46,753 nucleotides of DNA from Welwitschia mirabilis. Its lineage: Eukaryota. Made by a program: the position numbers and the translations under genes. The notes under the pieces are model-generated. The model searched no databases, was not told the origin of the DNA, and was given only the letters and a program-made list of their open reading frames with translations. This document shows, in pieces, positions 11,907 to 46,650 of this stretch (positions are counted from its first letter, which is position 1; every line of letters begins with the position of its first letter). The stretch is taken from NCBI GenBank assembly GCA_051453625.1, contig JBOZIK010000001.1, forward strand, positions 48,860,053 to 48,906,805. The letters run 5' to 3'.

Positions 11907-14900
11907 TTATATTGATAAGGAATTGATCCCTAAACTAAGTTGATTTTTGAAGAACAAAAATTTTTCTTTACTCAAACTCTTAATCATAATAGCTACAATT
12001 TGTTTATTAGTTGGAATATATTCAAGAGTAATATTATCATGTTGGACATGTTCCAAAATGAAGTGATGTTTAATGTCTATATATTTAGTTCTAAAGTGTC
12101 GAAGAGGGTTATTGGTTATGTTTATTGTGCTAGTATTATCACAATAGATTTTGATTTTATCAAGTTTAACACCAAAGTTGATCATTATTTGTTTTATCTA
12201 AAGCAACTGAGTACAACATGCTCCTACAGCTATGTATTTAACTTCAGAAGTGAATAAAGATGTTGTAGTTTTCTTTCTACTTGACCATGAGACTAGGTAG
12301 TTTCCCATATAGAAGTAAATACCACTAGTAGTTTTTTTATCATTGGCACATCTTACCTAATCAGCATCACTGTATCCCTTTAGATATAATGTAGTATTAT
12401 AGTCATACTAAAGACTAAAGTTTTGAGTGAACTTGAGATACCTCAAGATTCTTTTAACATGGATAAGATGGGATTATCTAGAGTCATCTTGATATCTTTC
12501 ACAAACTCTAATACTATAGGCAATGTTAGGTCTACTAGTAGTGACATACAATAAGCTTCCTATAAGACCTTGATGTAGCTTTTGGTCTACTTTCTTTCCA
12601 AGTTTATCTTTACTTACTTTAGCCCTTGTGGACATGGGAGTTATGGTATCTTTAGATTCCTTCATGTTGTATTTAATAAGGATATCATAAACATACTTAG
12701 ATTGATAGATAACAATTCAATTCTTTCTTTTTTTTATTTTTAGTCTTAAGAAAACATTTAGTTCAACCCTTAATTTCATTTCTAATTTCTTTTGCATGAG
12801 GTTGGTAAAATCCAAGGCAGGAGAGTCTTTAGTAGATCCAAAAATAATATTGTCTACATAGATCTGAGCTATAAGAATGTTTTCTTTATCTCTTTTAATG
12901 AAGATATTTAGGTTCATACTACCCTTTGAAAAGTCATTATCTAAGAGAAAAGAATCTAGTTTATCGAACTAGGCTCTAGGATCTTGTTGTAAACCCTACA
13001 AAGATTTATTTATCTTAAAAACATGATTAGAAAATTTTGAATTAGTAAAACCTAGAGGTTGAGCTATATAGACTTCTTCATTTATAAAACCATTTAAAAA
13101 TGCGCTTTTAACCTCCGTTTGAAATAATTTTATTTTATGAAAACATGCATAAGTAAGTAACATGTAGATAGCTTCTAATCTAATAACTATAGTGAATGTC
13201 TCACCATAATTAATCCCCTCTTATTGGTAATATCTTTGAGCTACTAATCTTGCTTTGTTTTGAATAATGTTGTGATATTAATCTCTCTTGTTTTGAATAC
13301 TCATTTTGTACAAATGACATGTTTTCCTTCTGACCAAGGGAGTGGGTTCCACACTTTGTTTTGTTTAAATTGATTAAGTTCCTTTTGTATGGATAACATT
13401 CATGATTTATTGTTGTCTACTTCCTAAAATGTTTTGTTCAATGTTAGATAAAAAACAAAGGAAACTTTGGTTGATGTGCTTACCACTTCTTGTAGTGGTT
13501 CCTTCAGAGGAAGCACTTAAGATGGAATCTTCAGGATGGTTCCTTTTGATTTTCATTAGAAGAAAGGAACATTATTAAAAGTCTTTNNNNNNNNNNNNNN
13601 NNNNNNNNNNNNNNNNNNNNNNNNNNNNNNNNNNNNNNNNNNNNNNNNNNNNNNNNNNNNNNNNNNNNNNNNNNNNNNNNNNNNNNNNNNNNNNNNNNNN
13701 NNNNNNNNNNNNNNNNNNNNNNNNNNNNNNNNNNNNNNNNNNNNNNNNNNNNNNNNNNNNNNNNNNNNNNNNNNNNNNNNNNNNNNNNNNNNNNNNNNNN
13801 NNNNNNNNNNNNNNNNNNNNNNNNNNNNNNNNNNNNNNNNNNNNNNNNNNNNNNNNNNNNNNNNNNNNNNNNNNNNNNNNNNNNNNNNNNNNNNNNNNNN
13901 NNNNNNNNNNNNNNNNNNNNNNNNNNNNNNNNNNNNNNNNNNNNNNNNNNNNNNNNNNNNNNNNNNNNNNNNNNNNNNNNNNNNNNNNNNNNNNNNNNNN
14001 NNNNNNNNNNNNNNNNNNNNNNNNNNNNNNNNNNNNNNNNNNNNNNNNNNNNNNNNNNNNNNNNNNNNNNNNNNNNNNNNNNNNNNNNNNNNNNNNNNNN
14101 NNNNNNNNNNNNNNNNNNNNNNNNNNNNNNNNNNNNNNNNNNNNNNNNNNNNNNNNNNNNNNNNNNNNNNNNNNNNNNNNNNNNNNNNNNNNNNNNNNNN
14201 NNNNNNNNNNNNNNNNNNNNNNNNNNNNNNNNNNNNNNNNNNNNNNNNNNNNNNNNNNNNNNNNNNNNNNNNNNNNNNNNNNNNNNNNNNNNNNNNNNNT
14301 TATGATAGGATTTGTTGAACACTTTGTATGCTTTACTTGAAATAGAATAACCAAGAAAAATACCATCATCAGATTTTAATTCAAATTTACCTATGTAAGT
14401 TTTATCTTTGAGAATAGTAAATTTACTTCCAAATACTTTAAAGTAACTTACATTTGGTTTCTTATCATACCATAGTTCATATGCTATCTTTATTATACTT
14501 GTTCTTAAGAAGATTCTGTTCCTTACATAACATGTAGTGTTTATGACTTTGGCTCAAAAGTGTTGAGGTAAATCATACTCATTCAGCATGATTCTAGCCA
14601 TCTTAATTAGCACTTTGTTCTTTTTTTTAGCTACTCTATTTTGTTGTGGAGTTCTTGGTGCTAAAAATTGATGTTGTATTCCATTTGTGTTATAGAACTT
14701 CTCAAATTTTTCATTCTTAAATTTACCACCATGATTAGATTGAATTTATTTAATAGTGTATCCTTTTTCATTCTATATTCTCTTGTAAACTTTAACAAAT
14801 AGATCAAATGTCTCATTCTTACTAGATAGAAATGAGACCTAACAGAAACAAAAAATCATCCACTATAATTAAAATATATTTCTTACCTCCTAAGCTTCTT

Positions 14901-17165
14901 TCTTGAGTTGGTCCAACCAAGTTAATATGAATAAGATCAAGAGGTTGATTTGTAGAAATACCTAATTCGGATTTGAAGCTTGATTTTGACATCTTATCTT
15001 TCATGCACAATTCACACATTCTTACCTATTGCATATTAAGTTTCTGAATTCCAGCCACAATTTTCTTTCTTAGAATTGTCTTTAAATATTTGAGATTCAT
15101 GTGACTGAGCCTCCTATGCCAAATGTCAATTTCATCTTCTTGCACTATAAAATACCCTTCTCCATGCTTGTCTTGGCTACCAATAACATCCATGCACTTA
15201 GATTTATTACTATTAATACAATACTATTAGTGAAAGAATTTCTAATAATACATTTAGCTTTATAAAAGGAGATAGTGTTTCCTCTATCATAAATTTGGAA
15301 AACACCTAAGAGATTATTCTTTAAACCATTAGCTAAATAAACATCATGAATTTCAGGATGGTTCTCATTTACAGTAATGGATTCTTTACCAACAATGTGA
15401 TTTTTTTCATTATCTTCAAAGGTTACTTTGCCAATGTTATAGTCTTGGAAGATTATTAACAATATCTTATCACCATTCATATGATGATAACATCTATTGT
15501 CCAAGTATCATTTTGTTATCTCTTGTACTTTAAATATTGCATGAATAAATAGAGACATAGTGGCTTTGTTCCTTATCCATTTCTAATTATTCATCTTAGT
15601 GATTGGTCTTCCTTCTAAAGTTTTAAGTTTACTTTAAGATTTATGATTATACTTGTATTTGAACTACTAGGATTTTTTGTATTAACAAGAAAATTGGATG
15701 TGATCATATTCTTGAATACATAGCACTTTAAACTAGAGACACCAAAAGAATGATACTTAACAATTGAACAAAAAAACTTCAGGGATGAAACATATCAAAC
15801 TAGATCCAATTTTAAATTTATCATTTTATTTCATTTACATTTTTAATAGATGATTCAAATTATCCTTTCTATTTACAAGTCATTCAACCACACCTTGGAT
15901 TTGAGCTAGATCGTTGTAAAAAGCCTTTATCTCTATAGAGGCCTCTTTTAGTTTCCCTTTTAGATTGCTAACCTCTTTCTTAATACAAATATTTTTCTTT
16001 CCAAGATCTAAGCTAACATGATATAGTTTTTCATAAGTAGTAGATAAATCATCATCATTACTCTCATGATTACATACCTCAGTTAAGTTAATTGAAGAAT
16101 GTAAATCAAGAGATTTACTTACATCTTCTATTATGGAGATTAGACTAAAATTTAATATATCCTTCTTCATCATTTGAGGGAGAGCTTGCATTATCCTCAT
16201 CCCAAGTAGCTTTTAAGGCTTTCTTGCCTTTGGATTTAATAAGCTTGTCCTTTAATTTATTAGTACATTCAAAAGTAATATGATTATACCCTTTTCATTC
16301 TTAACATTGAATGGAGCTAGATAGGTTTTTACCTTTGTCCATACCTTGTCTGAAGGAATGTTAAGAAGATATTCCTCCTTTTTTCTTGAGAAATTTTTTA
16401 AAATTTCTTGCTAGAAGAGGCAAGATGTTGTCTTCTAAGTCCTTACATATTGAGTGTTCTCATCGTCATTAGGTTTAGATTTAAGAGCAATATTTCTTCT
16501 CCTTGATTGATCATCTTATATCTGTAGAGATGCCTCATATTCCATGAGAGATCCTTTAAGTCCTTTAATCTTGATACATAGATATTCTTGCTTTTATCAA
16601 TGGCTGTAATCTTGGGTCTTAAGTTCTTGATGAGCCTCCTAAGGATCTTCCTCATAACATGGTTCCGAGGCATAGCTTCTCCCATGTCCTACATGTTATT
16701 CACAATGTCATTTATTTTGGAGGTTTAGTCTGCCACTGATTCTAAGTCTTCCATCATGATGTTTTCAAATTGAGCTCCTAACATTAAAATTTTGCATTTT
16801 TCATAATGTTCGTATCTTTATGAGCAACCCTTAAAGTCTCCCAGCTTTCTTGAGCTATTGTGCATTGCACCACACAGTTGTACTCTTCTAGAGATAAGGC
16901 ACAAATCAAGGCATTCATGACTTTATCATTCATTTGAGTAGTGCTTTTGTTGTCTTGATCTTGTTCACTTCTTAGTTTTGGGATGGTTTTACCACTGACT
17001 ATTTTCATAAGGGTAGTATATCCAAACTCAACCATTTTCCAAATCTCATAATCTAGGAACTATAGGAAAACGGCCATATTCTTTTTCCAGTAGGCATAGT
17101 TGGATCCTAAACACAAAAGGCGGTCTAGAGATAGATTAACTTTCTATAAAGTTTGAGGAAGCCAT
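11907..17165 (-). pseudogene. gag-pol of element 2, disrupted, spanning an N gap
   Basis: gag start MASSN..RPP...NYAYWK at 17165; protease LDNRCYHHMNG; integrase PLDLIHINLVGP; RT QIYVDNIIFGS; RNase H IYCDNTSTINI..RTKYIDIKHHFI. Confidence 0.93.
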
Positions 17166-30411: not shown

Positions 30412-30776
30412 ATTGGCATTAATAATATTACTTTTAGATTAGAACCCAAAGAAAGAAAATGTGGTTGGAGGTGAATCATCTTCTTTAAGTTATAGAACAC
30501 AAATGTAATGGATAGGTAGCATCTCAATAGTACCTTATATTGATGAAACCTTGGGTTAAGAAAATATTCATGAAGGTGGTCATAGTAATAGCTATGGTCA
30601 TCGTGGTCTAGTACAAAATGGAAGCCTAGCTTATTATGCTTTTTGTCATGGACTAGTTATAACTAAAAACTTAACATGAAATGAAAGTTGCAAATAATTC
30701 ATGATCTCACCAGTCATGTTGTGAGTCGCTTTACTAGAAATTTCTACAAATATTAGTTTTAAAGGGCTAATATTAT

Positions 30777-31052
30777 AGATTGGGTTTTAGTTGTAAACTT
30801 GTAGTCTTTCCTTTGATCTTTCTTTTAGTTCCCACCACTTTTAGACCATAGGCGTGTGGCGTAGTTTCTCATGACTTATTATAGAACATCCATTATGTAA
30901 TACCATTCACTATTGCAGATTGGGTTTTAGTAGTAAACTTGTAGCCTTTTCTTTGATCTTTCTTTTAGTTTCCACCACTTTTAGACCATAGGCAAATGGT
31001 GTAGTTGGTCATGACTTATTATAGAACATCAACTAAATAATTCCATTCACTA
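30777..31052. repeat. 140-bp tandem duplication (2 copies)
   Basis: TGGGTTTTAG at 30781 and 30921, with high identity through ...CCATTCACTA. Lies downstream of the minus-strand gene. Confidence 0.95.
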
Positions 31053-31380
31053 CAGAGGGGAGATGATAGAAATTCCTTTCACACAAGAAAAGTCGAGTTT
31101 TTCATAATCAAGCAAACATATGATTTGGCATTCAAAACCATGCTACATAAAGCATGGTCCATTACTGCATAGACCGGTGACAAGCACACAGCAAACCCAT
31201 GAGTTAAGGCTAAATCTTAGCGTAGGCAAACTATTGCAGAGCATGACCAAGAGAATGATATCTTATTTATTTCACAAAAGAACCAATCAGCCAACCAATC
31301 AATCAATGAAAAAATAAACTAACGACACAATTGACGAGCTTTCAAAGCATGAAAAGTGCTGACGTGGAAATGGAGGGCAT

Positions 31381-31880
31381 TCACCTGAAACCGCGTCGCA
31401 GGTCCCGGTGAGCAAAGGCCATCTCTGCGACGGCTCGGCGACCGCCGCGCAGAGACGTCGGCGGAGAGGCGTTCTCCACCTCAGCACGACGACGCTGCTC
31501 TGTCACTTCCACGTTCGCAACCTGCGCACAGCAAATGGAGCTTCATTTCTCTCTTTCCTCCGTTGATATCCATTCTCAATTACTAAAGACAAGCTTCATT
31601 TCGTTCTTTCATTCATTGATTTCGTTGATGTTAGGGTTGATATCCATCCTGACTTCTCAATTACGAAATATGAATAAATGAGAGAAGAGGCACATACGAA
31701 TTCCGGGGAGTCGAAGAGATTAGAGATGTCTCGGAGAGGCGAGCGCGGATCGCCGTTGAAGGAAATGTCTGACTGTGGATGCGGATCCGGATCCCCTTCT
31801 GTCGATGCGCCATTCGCGTTCGCAGTGCGCGACGACGGCGTTGAAATGCTTTCTACTTCGAATCCTTTTGCCGACGCCAT
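31381..31880 (-). CDS. Small two-exon gene (31880-31698, 31521-31381), 107 aa, with a D-box and a C-terminal FR tail; UVI4/OSD1-like motif layout
   Basis: CpG-rich island. Phase-0 intron GTATGT...TGCGCAG (31697-31522). Spliced product: MASAKGFEVESISTPSSRTANANGASTEGDPDPHPQSDISFNGDPRSPLRDISNLFDSPEF/VANVEVTEQRRRAEVENASPPTSLRGGRRAVAEMAFAHRDLRRGFR*. Confidence 0.75.
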
Positions 31881-31895
31881 CGCATTCGCATTCTC

Positions 31896-32090
31896 TTTGA
31901 ATTGTTGAGAGTTCAGTGAATGAACTAGCGAAACCAGAAGATAAATCGGATGGTTGGACAACCGTTGAGAGTCGAGAGAGCGAAGAGGCGGTAAATATTT
32001 CAAAGAAAAGAGAAGAAACGAATGAATTGCACATGTATCGTATGAATGACGTATCCATTCTCCACTCTCCACTGTCCAACGGTCGTTAAT
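31896..32090 (-). promoter_or_regulatory. Putative G2/M promoter with MSA and CHR-like elements
   Basis: TCCAACGGTC (32075-32084) is a full match to the MSA consensus YCYAACGGYY; CTCAACGGTT is on the minus strand at 31960-31969; TTTGAA occurs at 31896-31901 (+) and 31999-32004 (-). Confidence 0.6.
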
Positions 32091-32402
32091 TCGTCCTTGT
32101 CCATGTAATTAATTACTATTTAACAACTTCAATTATCTATTTCCCGACTTCATTTTGAATGCTCATCGTATTGTGTATCATTAACAAATTAGAGTTGTAT
32201 GAACCCCATAGCCATATGTAGGAATAATGCCTTGAATTATTCTCTGTTTTTTAGAATCATAGATCAAAGAGCTCAAATCCTCCATGGTAATAAGGAAATA
32301 TGATAATGGATCACTTCTCGACGGACAATCATTGGGTGAAAATAATCATAAACCTGTTAATCTAAAATTAATAAAAATTTTATACTTTTATAACACTGCT
32401 AA

Positions 32403-32442
32403 AGTTTTCATTATTAATGATTAGTTTTCATTATTAATGATT
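32403..32442. repeat. 20-bp perfect tandem duplication
   Basis: AGTTTTCATTATTAATGATT x2. Confidence 0.95.
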
Positions 32443-32652: not shown

Positions 32653-32742
32653 TCCCATAAATTTTCAAATGGTCTTACAAGCCACAGTACAAAGACGTCC
32701 CATAAATTTTCAAATGATCTTATAGGCAACAGTATAAAGACG
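32653..32742. repeat. 45-bp tandem duplication
   Basis: TCCCATAAATTTTCAAAT...AAAGACG x2 with a few substitutions. Confidence 0.92.
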
Positions 32743-39149: not shown

Positions 39150-42100
39150 AGACCTAAAGGATTTATTGAATAGAGGAAATGATCATGTCATGAAATACAA
39201 AGATAGATTCAGTAAAGTGGCCAACAACCACTAGATGCAATATGAAAAAATCAAAGAGATTTCTTCTAGTGATATTAAATTTTTTTTCTTATAGGTTCTG
39301 TAGTAGTACAAAAAAATAAAACATATCCTTTGCCTTCAATTATCCTAGATTACACAATCCACATGCTATTCCATCTTTCACTTTTGATTTTGAGACAATG
39401 AAAACTTAATCAAGCTTTACTAATAAGGCTTTGCATCTTCATTGGCATTTTTGCTATATGATAGTGAACTAGTAAATCAAATTGATTATGGTGAATTTTC
39501 TCAAAATAAAACTTCTTATTGACTTATACATTTGTCTATAATTTTATTAGAACATGTTTCTTCCTGAAACTATAAATCTTAATGAAATTGATTTGGACAT
39601 TCTCCTAAGAAATATTCCATGTTTTTAGCCATTGCATTCCCTGAAAATACCATTCTTTCTCTTTTGTAGTTTTAAGAATTACTCATGAAATTTTTAGTTG
39701 CTCTGCTTCCATTAGCTTTAAAGTGTAAGCATAAAACTGACACATGGCTTTGGCTTTAATACCTAAAAGATTACATTATAACAACATCATAGGATAAGGT
39801 ATTTGAATCTTTACCTTAAGTTCATCTAGTAAGAAAAATTTCTGCACTCTGTCAATATCTTTCCAATTTCTTTCACTTATAGCTAGCCTCCAAACTGGGC
39901 ATCTATACAAAATAGTGGGATATATGATGGATTGAAAAACTTTTTTATGAACTTGCCAAGCCCAAATCCCCGTTGAACTACATTTATTTTTTATAGCATA
40001 GAAAGCTTTAGTTTGATCTTCTATCCTCTCTTTAATCCATTTGTCCCATATATAGTTATTGAAATAACAAAAACCTAAGCATCAAAAAGCTTATGCTATT
40101 TTGATTTTCTCCCCATTGAATTTAAAATCAAATTAGGTATTCTTGGTGCTCTAAATTATTAATCTAGTTTTTTTTGGTATTTACTATCAAACTAAAGGAT
40201 TGACAAAAAAATTTCAATTTTGAAGCATGTTTTTCATACTTGTTTCTAAAGTAGAAATCAAAATTGCATCATTTGCATAAAAGAACAATTAGGCTATCAA
40301 TAATTCCATCTCAACAACATTTAGGTTCTTTGAAGAGCCAATCTTGTAACTCATTAATGAAGAGGCCAAAGAGTGTTGAAGAGAGAGGGCATCCCTGTTT
40401 TACTCCTATTATAGTGCAAAACCCAAAACATCTTTTTTAGTCAAAGTCTTTTGTTTCAATTATAACCTCTTCATATAATCTTTGAATAGCAGCAACAAGA
40501 TCAAGAGGGATTTCAATGTGATTGAGCCACATCCATAATTTTATACGTTCATTGAATCAAAAGCTTTTAAAAAATCAATAAAACAAAACATAAGTTTTTT
40601 GTTTAGCTTTTTTGCAAAATCTAGGCAATGCCTCAGCATAAGCAAATGATCAATAGTGGAATTATTTTGGTGAAAACTTGCTTGAAAATTTATTCTAATA
40701 TTATTGTCTTCTTCCCATTTCAATCTTCTGTTCAAGAAGTATGCCAAAAAGCTTTACAAAAACATTACTTACTATTATCATTCTATAATTATTTAGGTCA
40801 TTCTTGTCTTTTTTATTGAATAGCAAAATTGACTTGCTTGTTGTCCATTCCCAATTCAATCCATTTGCTACTATAAAATTCATTTTTTTTCAAATTTCTT
40901 TGTGAATTAAATATTTAACTCACTTCATTAGCTCAGTGTATAAACTAGTTGAATTCATGACTTTTTCATTAGCTAATCTATTAATGTCAGCTAAAACATC
41001 TTCAAAGGTAAATTGAAAAGGATTTTGAAGATTAACAATAAAGCTTTTCTTACCTATGTCTAATTTTTTTTTTGTGGGAAAAATCACATATTGCAAGAAA
41101 AGACAAATTTATAGTTGGAGATTCTTAGCACTACAAAGAATTCCAAAATTTCTTAGGATCCCTTTTGATCATGCAAATGAAATTTTCTTGTTTATCTTTG
41201 ATAAATTGTCTCTTTTTACTTCTAACAAGGATTTTGTATCTTTTTGTTACTACTTTCCTTTGATCTTTATCTTCTGTTTTAATATTTTTCTTACATATAT
41301 ACATTCATTATCAACCCAAGAATTTTGAGTGCATTAAATCTTTTCTTTTGAAAGTTTCAGCAACTGCATTCAGTAGAATTTTTTTCAAAATTTTTAATTT
41401 GTCTTTGAGATTTAATTTTATACAACCAGTTTAAATTCTTCTTTTGCCTCCAATCCTATTCTTATCTAATGGTTTTTCTTCTTTCACTTTTTATTCTTAT
41501 GTAAATTTAAAGTAATTTCTATCACAAACTCCAAATGATGATGGCATGATTACACTAAGTAATTACCTACTCCAAAATCCTTCATAAACTGTACATCCTC
41601 AAAAGAAGAAATAAGGAAATCAATACATGAATTTCCTTGGATCCCTATAAATGTAAAATTTTCAAATCTAGGGAATCTGTCTAAGCCATTACAAATCAAT
41701 AAATCCATCATCTTTGTCCATTCTAGAAAATTTTTTCCAAATGTATTAAATGTTTTATCAGCAGAGTGTCGAGACAACTTTAAATTAGAAATCACATCTA
41801 TTTCACCATTCTTATGATACCATTGTATAAGATTTGTTTGTTCTAATCCAACTTGAGTATTAGATATTCACAAATGAAAACCTTTACTTTTATTCGAAAA
41901 TATGCAATATCTTCTTCTAAATGCTAGAAAGGAAAATATTTAAGTAATCCTTTGATAGTATAAATAGATGATTATTTGGGAGAAAAATAACAAATAGCAA
42001 GATAAATATAGTCCTAATGGTGATAAATTTTCAGCCAATATATTATTTATGTTGATCCACCTTTTCAAGTTTGACAATATGCTCTAGAGAACTTCAAATG

Positions 42101-42753: not shown

Positions 42754-43041
42754 TTAAAGCCCTCTATAGAATGGAAACATGTTACGATGATTATGGTCAA
42801 GAAGGAATCTACCCAAATCATCAAAGAGGATCTCAAACGCTTGATTTATCTCCTTAAATTCTTTAGCACCTACTAAATTTTTATCTGGATGTAGGTGTAG
42901 GGCTTTCTTCCTGTAGCTAACTTTAAGGATCTGAAGGAAGGCTCTATGAAAGAGTCCTAATGTGATAAAGAGACATCTCTTCAGCCCTTGAATGGTTGGC
43001 AGTACAACCTCCCATCTAGCAGCATTTATGTTAATGTCCTT
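42754..43041 (-). pseudogene. DnaJ J-domain-coding segment in a stop-interrupted intronless frame
   Basis: 95 open codons including CLFITLGLFHRAFLQILKVSYRKKALHLHPDKNLVGAKEFKEINQAFEILFDDLGRFLLD, with HPD at 42883-42891. The same frame upstream is S/P/Q-rich with TAA/TAG/TGA stops. Confidence 0.82.
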
Positions 43042-43276
43042 TTATGGTTGAGGTTGGATTTTGACTGATGAAGAATCTGAAGTGGAGTTCTATGGAGAGC
43101 TTGGGCCTAAGGCTGAAGTAGGGGAGGTTTGAACATGCCTACCTCACTTTTGACGATTGGGTAACGGTTGATCCTANNNNNNNNNNNNNNNNNNNNNNNN
43201 NNNNNNNNNNNNNNNNNNNNNNNNNNNNNNNNNNNNNNNNNNNNNNNNNNNNNNNNNNNNNNNNNNNNNNNNNNNN

Positions 43277-45050: not shown

Positions 45051-45279
45051 ATATTTTGTAAATGGAATGTTCTTCCTAGTGGAGGCAATGACGGGTTTGC
45101 TTTGAATTAAATAAAGGAGAAACTAAACTGTCTCCCAACTCTTAATAAATTTATGTACATCATGCATTGGGGTGAGGACATGTGGTTTCAAACTTGTGGT
45201 GTGCATTTCAGCTGTACACCTCATTTAATATGAAATAGAAAGTTGTTTAGCCTGCTTCTTAAATAAATAAAAAGGAAAG

Positions 45280-46650
45280 AAGCGGAGAGGTGATGTGAGA
45301 ACTCGAGTGTGAATGAATGAGTGTGCATCCGATGACCAAAACGAAGTGGCGCACGTGTAATGTCTATTGAAGTCACGTGGTTGTGGTTATAGCAGGAAAT
45401 ACGAGTCCTTACAAAAAGATGATTTGAAAGACGAGCAAGCAAAAGCATGTGATTTACAGTAGAGAATGAAGTAAAGGTAACTTGGTATTGAGAATGGTGC
45501 AGACACCGAGACTTCAATCCTTCAAAGCACCCTTTTAAAATTTCTTTGCAGTCCTCCTCTACTCTTATCTTTGGCCGTCTCGCTTGTGTAAACGTTGCCT
45601 CTTAGTTCGTAGGAACCCCTGTTTCAAGCACTCTGTATCTCTTTCTTGTGTGCTCTTTTCTTGGATGCCCTCTGTTTTTTCTGTTTTCTGTTCTGCTTTT
45701 GATTCCCTGCCTCTCCCTAACTCTGTTGCTGCTTCATCGAGCTCCCCCGTTTCCTCAGTGCACCTCCCTTGTTTTTTTTTTTATTACACCCTTCTCTCTA
45801 TCATCAGGTTCCCCCGTATCCGTCTTTCGGCTCCTTTTTCTTTCTTTCTTTTTTCCCCCTTCTATGATTCAGTCTTCATTGAGAAGGAAGCTACTTAGCC
45901 CCCTTCTGCCAGTCTTATCTTCTATGACGTTGTTGAAAAGACTGAAGCGCAGCCCTGTTGACTTCTGTGCCCTAGCTTTGCTATGACGTCGTGTTCTACC
46001 AGCGTCCTCCATGCTTGCCGATCACCTTTTCTGATCGCATCCTTCTTTGCAACTGTTGATGCTCCCCGCTGGCCGCCGTTTGTTCTGCTGCATCTTCGAT
46101 TGGCTCGTGTCTCTGATCCACTAGCATCCTCTGACGCAGTCTTCTCTAGCTGACTGTTGGCCTGTGTCCTCTCTTCCTGTGTTCTGGCTGTAATTCTTTA
46201 GCCTCTTCTGTGCTGCGCGGCTCCTTTATGTGTGCTGGCTCTTTAACTGCACTAGTCGTGCTTCCTGTGACCACTGGTTCCCTCTTAGCACCTCTGTTCC
46301 TGCGGTTCATGTGGTTTGTGCTGGCGTCCCCTCCGTAACCATCGATCACTGCAACACCTCTTTAACTGAGCTGCCCTCAGTTTTCTTCTGGCGTTGTGTT
46401 GGTGTTCGTGCTGTCGAAGCTGTGTTAAAATGCGTTGTAGCTGATTGACTGCTAGCTCTCTCTTCATCCCTTACATCTTCTAACGCTTCCTTGCTGTTTG
46501 AATTCTGCCTTTTGTCCCCTATTTTTCTTGGGGTCCCCTATTTTTGCCTCCTGCTTTCTGCCAATCCCATGCTGCAGCATATGCTCTTATTCACTTCTAG
46601 CTCATTCCGATATGCCGCATTCCGTGTGCGTAGGGATTTGTGTTGACGTG
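45280..46650. other. CpG-rich island of unknown function, pyrimidine-skewed on the + strand, with two G-boxes at its left edge
   Basis: CACGTG at 45352-45357 and 45374-45379; many intact CpGs compared with the flanks; no credible ORF. Confidence 0.5.

Follow-up and report, generated by a model that had tools for sequence, protein, structure and literature searches.

The Arabidopsis protein OSD1 has a GxEN/KEN box at residues 80–83, a destruction box (D-box) at residues 104–110 and an MR tail, and a parallel between it and the yeast protein Mes1 has been drawn (PMC3406007). [quoted passage not shown] At the level of transcription, mitotic cyclin genes are driven by mitosis-specific activator (MSA) elements with the consensus (T/C)C(T/C)AACGG(T/C)(T/C)A (PMC5405339), which usually lie near the transcription start in variable number and orientation (PMC10905365). 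The hexamer TTCAAA is the in-vitro preference of the Arabidopsis DREAM factor TCX5, and ATATTTAA is a putative motif of TCX6 (PMC13674478). Here we describe a locus in a 46,753-nucleotide stretch of Welwitschia mirabilis DNA (GCA_051453625.1, contig JBOZIK010000001.1, positions 48,860,053 to 48,906,805, forward strand; the whole stretch is called the window) where two MSA-type sites lie upstream of a two-exon open reading frame (ORF) that contains a consensus D-box. We read this locus, tentatively and with somewhat less than even confidence, as an unannotated, lineage-restricted gene that would be expressed in G2/M and would encode an APC/C substrate gated by cyclin-dependent kinase (CDK).

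The D-box, RSPLRDISN, occupies residues 46–54 of the proposed protein (31719..31745, minus strand). R at P1, L at P4, D at P6, I at P7 and N at P9 fit the consensus, and P10 is L, not N or S. The sequence-only reading had reported a D-box on the pattern RxxLxxxxN, and the nine residues fit the full published consensus and not just that shorter pattern. Bare RxxLxxxxN is common, with 14 six-frame matches in the window and a frequency of 2.4–2.6% among residue shuffles. By contrast, RxxLx[D/E][hydrophobic]xN, the pattern that we counted as a consensus D-box, has a single occurrence among the window's 89,972 six-frame residues; it arises in 202 of 300,000 shuffles of the protein's residues and, with any of the six frames accepted, in 84 of 5000 shuffles of the surrounding island, figures that overstate the surprise because the thresholds were set after the sequence had been seen and the locus had been chosen for its motifs. 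The D-box is in the frame and direction set by the promoter motifs. Its first seven residues, RSPLRDI (46–52), also satisfy the conserved RxxLxx[LIVM] pattern that proteins of the OSD1/UVI4 type need to bind co-activators. There are four S/T-P sites in the protein, and only S47-P-L-R, at D-box positions 2–5, is a full CDK-type site (S/T-P-x-K/R). Ser at P2 and Pro at P3 fit the published pattern of CDK-inhibited D-boxes (PMC5717348). A text search of the literature with the D-box core cut into four 6-mers gave no match. A preprint on CHIQUITA1 that came up as a destruction-box lead was set aside as irrelevant, its only connection being the use of a cyclin reporter.

Upstream of the proposed ATG there are two AACGG cores, at 31966–31962 on the gene strand and at 32078–32082 on the opposite strand. 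We scored an MSA site as flank-matching when AACGG was accompanied by at least 4 of the 5 flank positions of YCYAACGGYY. The nearer site, CTCAACGGTT (31960..31969, minus strand), is in the sense orientation with its core 86 nt upstream of the ATG and matches 4 of the 5 positions; the farther one, TCCAACGGTC (32075..32084, plus strand), is antisense to the gene about 200 nt upstream and matches all 5. Two flank-matching sites were seen in none of 2000 dinucleotide shuffles of the 210-bp upstream stretch, and the whole window holds just three such sites, two of them here. The upstream count of bare AACGG is borderline (P=0.038). The claim of two MSA motifs within about 210 bp of the ATG is borne out, with flanks that fit the published consensus. 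Judged by position and orientation, the placement of both sites seems typical of MYB3R targets (PMC10905365).

The same upstream region contains a TTTGAA at 32004, 124 nt from the ATG, that runs directly into ATATTTA (31992..32004, minus strand), with a TATA-like TATTTA 117 nt from the ATG. A TTCAAA 21 nt from the ATG (31896..31901, minus strand) is a weak feature, being a common hexamer, and a further copy lies at 32159, 279 nt upstream. The likeness of TTTGAA plus ATATTTA to the TCX motifs is suggestive, though the hexamer is common in AT-rich DNA; TTTGAA or TTCAAA occurs 123 times in the window (2.7 per kb), and the count within the 210 bp is borderline (P=0.038). Of the earlier proposal of DREAM control through TTTGAA, what stands is that the two motifs are present and that TTCAAA is known for TCX5, but their number is not beyond chance.

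Most of the window is AT-rich, plant-like DNA, with a G+C fraction (GC) of 0.17–0.34 in most 1-kb bins, and it holds transposon debris and eight runs of N. The locus lies in a CpG-retaining, GC-richer island (31300..32200, without strand) delimited by CpG observed/expected ratio and a window scan. The ratio is 1.06–1.82 across 31300–32199 in 200-bp windows, compared with 0.29 for the whole window, and GC is 0.40–0.56 at 31.3–32.2 kb. A ratio of at least 0.8 with at least 8 CpG was reached in 12 of 436 windows of 300 bp (median ratio 0.18), and nine of these 12 fall in the island, the three weaker ones being at 45.2–46.1 kb. The island is the sole strong CpG island in the 46.7 kb window and exceeds chance, in agreement with what the sequence-only reading had described. 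No second copy of it was found within the window, no Rfam match (at gathering and E≤1 thresholds) or tRNA scan hit falls on it, and a plasmid DNA search for a vector-like or bacterial-like origin gave no match. That it is a fragment captured in a transposon was considered and dropped, as no inverted repeats bracket it. The island has the look of a promoter and a short unit of transcription.

The two-exon model is on the minus strand and yields 107 codons from an ATG at 31880. The coding part of exon 1 (31698..31880; 61 codons, phase 0) is joined across a 176-nt intron (31522..31697, GTATGT...GCGCAG) to exon 2 (31381..31521), which has 46 codons and a TGA stop at 31383–31381. The earlier model of one GT-AG splice giving 107 residues with RSPLRDISN and an LRRGFR end holds letter for letter. 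GC is 0.56 and 0.67 in exons 1 and 2, compared with 0.38 in the intron and 0.37–0.42 in the flanks, but the AT-rich intron is partly circular as support, stop codons being AT-rich themselves. In both exons, the proposed frame is the one with most G at codon position 1. A 170-codon stop-free run that takes in exon 1 is mildly unusual (54 of 2000 shuffles, or 65 of 2000 with the parts shuffled separately). Without splicing, the frame of the ATG ends after 94 codons, and an alternative in-frame donor, GTAATT, 33 nt into the intron would give 118 residues. Beyond the stop by 112 nt, and preceded by a T/G-rich stretch, is an AATAAA (31266..31271, minus strand) that is a likely poly(A) signal and that we take to be a plant near-upstream element. 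Onward splicing from a GT overlapping the TGA was rejected, as what follows is AT-rich DNA that is poor in CpG and has no open frame.

Some further features were seen in and around the model. The proposed frame stays open for 76 codons upstream of the ATG (31881–32108, minus strand) with no ATG in that frame, and the seventh to fifth codons before the ATG spell K-E-N; the predicted protein would gain a KEN box from a non-AUG start or from an upstream exon. The intron contains an imperfect tandem duplication at 31539–31655 (repeat families D3 and D14, 81–85% identical, offsets of 53 and 74 nt), each copy of which starts near a GTAATTGAGAA, and a telomere-repeat-like AACCCTA at 31638. About 330 nt downstream of the proposed stop, a 140-nt unit is present in two tandem copies that are 88% identical (30771–31050).

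The half of the predicted protein encoded by exon 1 is acidic (10 D+E, 4 K+R) and the half encoded by exon 2 is basic (10 K+R, 6 D+E). On a charge–hydropathy plot the whole falls just within the disordered range (0.409, with the boundary at 0.420). In single-sequence AlphaFold2 models, which carry low weight, exon 1 is coil with a mean predicted local distance difference test score (pLDDT) of 61, and exon 2 forms two helices at residues 64–79 and 85–106 with a mean pLDDT of 76, so modelled that the FR end may be part of a helix. The description of the protein as apparently disordered suits the coil of the N-terminal half and does not suit the two predicted helices of the C-terminal half. Within the 107 residues there is no KEN, GxEN, DEN, ABBA or LRRL motif, the only similar element being a VEN at 76–78, after the D-box. 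The hydrophobic-Arg end is borderline (2.4% of shuffles), and an FR tail paired with the anaphase-promoting complex was not found in the literature searched. Two resemblances were followed up and rejected. The C-terminal helix looks like a CCT motif and has no Pfam match, and FDSPEF at residues 56–61 recalls Endosulfine/ARPP19, whose domain core we take to be FDSGDY, and no Pfam family was found for exon 1 at E≤10.

From the sequence features and their excess over chance we infer transcription, splicing, translation, CDK gating and APC/C recognition, and the reading we favour can be set out as a sequence of steps. MYB3R factors would bind the two MSA-type sites and drive transcription in G2/M, possibly with repression of the DREAM/TCX type through TTTGAA/TTCAAA, which is the weakly supported part of the scheme. 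A transcript of about 0.55 kb would lose its one 176-nt intron and be translated into a product of some 107 residues, acidic and unstructured in its N-terminal half, basic and possibly helical in its C-terminal half. The D-box at 46–54 would be read by the co-receptor formed by an APC/C co-activator and APC10, and the protein would be destroyed at mitotic exit. The Ser at D-box position 2 belongs to an S-P-x-R CDK site, so that its phosphorylation by CDK would be expected to protect the degron until the activity of the kinase drops.

Several observations weigh against this reading. The length of the spliced ORF is not beyond chance: when a single GT-AG intron may be placed at will, 80% of 200 dinucleotide shuffles of the island yield 107 or more codons of coding sequence. 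Over exon 1 each of the three sense frames is largely open, and another frame has a rival ATG ORF of 112 codons (31720–32058, minus strand), with A at –3, G at +4, 4 Cys and a hydrophobic start, that overlaps with most of exon 1 and with the promoter motifs. Out-of-frame ATGs 5 and 11 nt upstream of the start (31885 and 31891) open a 12-codon upstream ORF that overlaps the main ATG (31853..31891, minus strand), and this argues against the ATG at 31880 being used efficiently, unless the transcript begins downstream of them or scanning is leaky. NCG codons, which are rare in dicot genes, make up 18 of the 107, and a residue make-up like this one (13 S, 13 R, 12 A, 9 P, 1 K) comes out of CpG-rich DNA whichever frame is read. 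The single lysine, K5, is all that the protein offers as a ubiquitin acceptor. To this must be added that the motif thresholds are post hoc and that the sequence-only reading picked the locus for the very motifs counted.

The same direction is taken by the searches for relatives. These were made with each exon alone, HMMER being run with exon 1 and exon 2 being covered by a word-index search. Pfam gave nothing for either exon at E≤10. The word-index search of exon 1 gave 38 candidates among proteins of 108–2000 residues, none of which scored, and no candidate among proteins of 33–107 residues; with exon 2, 54 candidates among proteins of 82–2000 residues likewise gave no score. HMMER with exon 1 against 1,835,955,588 representatives returned 0 matches at E≤0.001, although in a library of this size a low-complexity query of 61 residues has to reach about 40 bits or more, and diverged relatives of a disordered protein could therefore be missed. 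The unspliced 94-residue ORF is absent from the protein collection by exact look-up, and so is the rival 112-residue ORF. A Pfam scan of 93 of the 106 stop-to-stop ORFs of the window found nothing at 31.3–32.2 kb; the other 13 are 12 ORFs that run through N stretches and one at 13378..13578 on the plus strand. A PDB sequence search with exon 1 gave none. Weaker leads were rejected: in the ESM Atlas, a cluster of 97-residue streptophyte 'hypothetical protein' for exon 1 (0.76) and clusters of only 21–25 residues for exon 2 (0.80–0.81), all below the meaningful level, and in the PDB, two designed proteins for exon 2 at E about 0.01, with no stretch passing alone. The profile search proposed in the sequence-only reading, done exon by exon, gave no relatives. 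Since no homologue of either exon was found, there is no evidence for the family of small D-box proteins ending in LRxxFR that had been suggested, of which these searches found no member besides this model.

Many of these points suit an explanation in which the MSA-bearing promoter and its transcript are real and the 107-codon model gives no functional protein, the transcript being non-coding or a very young one formed de novo. We regard this as possible but doubtful. The D-box would then be a by-product of Arg-rich translation of CpG-rich DNA, and a consensus D-box does still appear in some frame of the 84 island shuffles counted above. An ORF length within chance, the lack of relatives in Pfam, word-index and HMMER searches, NCG-rich codons with a residue make-up typical of GC-rich DNA, and the upstream ORF across the start all speak for it. 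However, the D-box is in the one frame and direction predicted by the promoter and the splice model, and the periodicity of G at codon position 1 favours the proposed frame in both exons. Also against it, a search of Rfam at E≤1 gave no match, and the inverted repeats include no strong hairpin. It seems improbable that there is no gene here at all and that the motifs coincide in DNA that arrived recently or is unmethylated for another reason, an insert from an organelle for instance. A young insert of that kind would fit GC of about 0.45 and undepleted CpG too, and neither HMMER with exon 1 nor the exact ORF look-up found a relative or an annotation-like record. What argues for a gene is that two flank-matching MSA sites (0 of 2000 shuffles) and a consensus D-box occur in the right order and direction, that GC swings between 0.38 and 0.67 in step with the exon–intron model, and that Rfam and tRNA scans show no organelle RNA genes.

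Two further explanations accept the protein and give it another role or origin. The sequence-only reading had offered a minimal inhibitor, about half the size of OSD1/UVI4. In a stronger version this would be a pseudosubstrate inhibitor of the APC/C that works as OSD1/UVI4 do, its D-box filling the co-activator site and its hydrophobic-Arg end docking on a tetratricopeptide repeat subunit. In its favour are a D-box core very like that of OSD1, a lysine content (one in 107 residues) poorly suited to accepting ubiquitin, and a C-terminal LRR faintly like the LRRL tail of Emi1/Ube2S (PMC5717348). But the idea comes solely from the FR end, which is not a described tail in the literature searched and which is predicted, in a single-sequence model of low weight, to lie within a helix that runs to residue 106. 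There is also no GxEN, KEN or DEN box and no ABBA motif, the scarcity of lysine is expected from GC-rich codons, and the searches found no homology to any protein; we consider such an inhibitor unlikely. A special form of it, which we think quite unlikely, is a lineage-restricted, perhaps newborn, lysine-poor mini-protein of G2/M expression that would act as a CDK-switched APC/C pseudosubstrate, a minimal OSD1/UVI4 analogue of independent origin. It would be inert while S47 is phosphorylated, and its dephosphorylated form would clamp the co-activator through the D-box, possibly helped by the basic C-terminal helix and the FR end, while the single lysine would let it resist ubiquitination. Very unlikely, in our judgement, is an origin from a gene of the OSD1/UVI4 type, as a truncated paralogue or a diverged fragment in which only the D-box segment has been retained. 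Such an origin would account for the P-R-[S/T]-P-L-R-D-I-[S/T] in common with Arabidopsis OSD1 as deduced from a primer, but the match is only nine residues long, the D-box of the cyclin TAM is nearly as close, the exhaustive HMMER search found nothing significant for exon 1, and both the GxEN box and the MR tail are missing.

We thus return to a G2/M-expressed, CDK-gated substrate as the reading that we tentatively favour. If it is real, the locus would be an unannotated mitotic gene and would show that MSA sites together with a consensus D-box can point to small cell-cycle proteins overlooked by gene predictors. It would also be a compact example of a D-box that carries its own CDK switch and, if the protein were an inhibitor instead, a new handle on endoreduplication and ploidy. 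On its motifs, the locus is a well-defined candidate among mitotic D-box proteins.

The remainder of the window contains other features. A second, weaker CpG-richer stretch at 45201–46100 (observed/expected 0.83–0.92, GC 0.39–0.49) has overlapping open frames on both strands with no Pfam match. In the AT-rich DNA just upstream of the island are a perfect 20-nt tandem duplication (32403–32442) and a 45-nt tandem duplication (89%; 32653–32742). A broken Ty1/copia-type retrotransposon on the minus strand at 12474–17059 shows RVT_2 (in two pieces), gag_pre-integrs, Pol_BBD and Retrotran_gag_2 in separate ORF pieces and has an N run inside it at 13587–14299. At 42754–43041, also on the minus strand, a 95-codon open frame matches the DnaJ J-domain (E 1.9e-10, HPD motif included) and is likely to be a fragment or a single exon of a J-protein gene; just upstream of it, at 43177–43276, is an N run. 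A weak RVT_1 match at 40541–40753, minus strand (22.9 bits against a Pfam cut-off of 29.6 bits), is possibly a remnant of a long interspersed nuclear element.

PANS1 is about 190 residues long. PATRONUS1/2, securin-like targets of the APC/C in plants, are, like the predicted protein, small and largely unstructured with a functionally important D-box, but PANS1 has a DEN-box (PMC4536785), whereas the model has no DEN or KEN and no sequence similarity to them was found. The short yeast pseudosubstrate inhibitors Mes1 and Acm1 block co-activators with D-box/KEN-type motifs; they carry several degron-like motifs and the model has one D-box. With yeast Dbf4 the model has in common a phosphorylatable Ser at D-box position 2 and a Pro at position 3 (PMC5717348), which here is a likeness of motif only, as the proteins are unrelated.

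The comparison with OSD1/GIG1, which like UVI4/PYM is an APC/C inhibitor of plants, is closer at the D-box. The D-box region of AtOSD1, in our own translation of a mutagenic primer in PMC3406007, reads P-R-T-P-L-R-D-I-T compared with P-R-S-P-L-R-D-I-S here, that is, 7 of 9 residues identical and two S/T swaps. OSD1/UVI4 also resemble the model in having a hydrophobic residue followed by Arg at the C-terminus and in their link to mitosis. They are roughly 243–259 residues long, so that the model, at 107 residues, is less than half their size. OSD1 has its GxEN/KEN before the D-box and an MR tail, whereas the model has no GxEN/KEN and ends FR, and homology to OSD1/UVI4 was not detectable by HMMER with exon 1 or word-index search with exon 2. 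With no GxEN box, no MR tail and a smaller size, membership of OSD1/UVI4 therefore fails.

The mitotic cyclins differ from the model in their fold, as a product of about 107 residues has no cyclin fold and no Pfam domain, but their N-terminal D-box shares its degron grammar, RxPLxDI[S/T]N. The D-box of TAM, deduced from PMC3406007 as RAPLGDITN, is nearly as close to RSPLRDISN as that of OSD1 is, which points to a general plant D-box grammar and not to a family signature. Judged by its predicted sequence, the description that stands is that the product works like a D-box protein.

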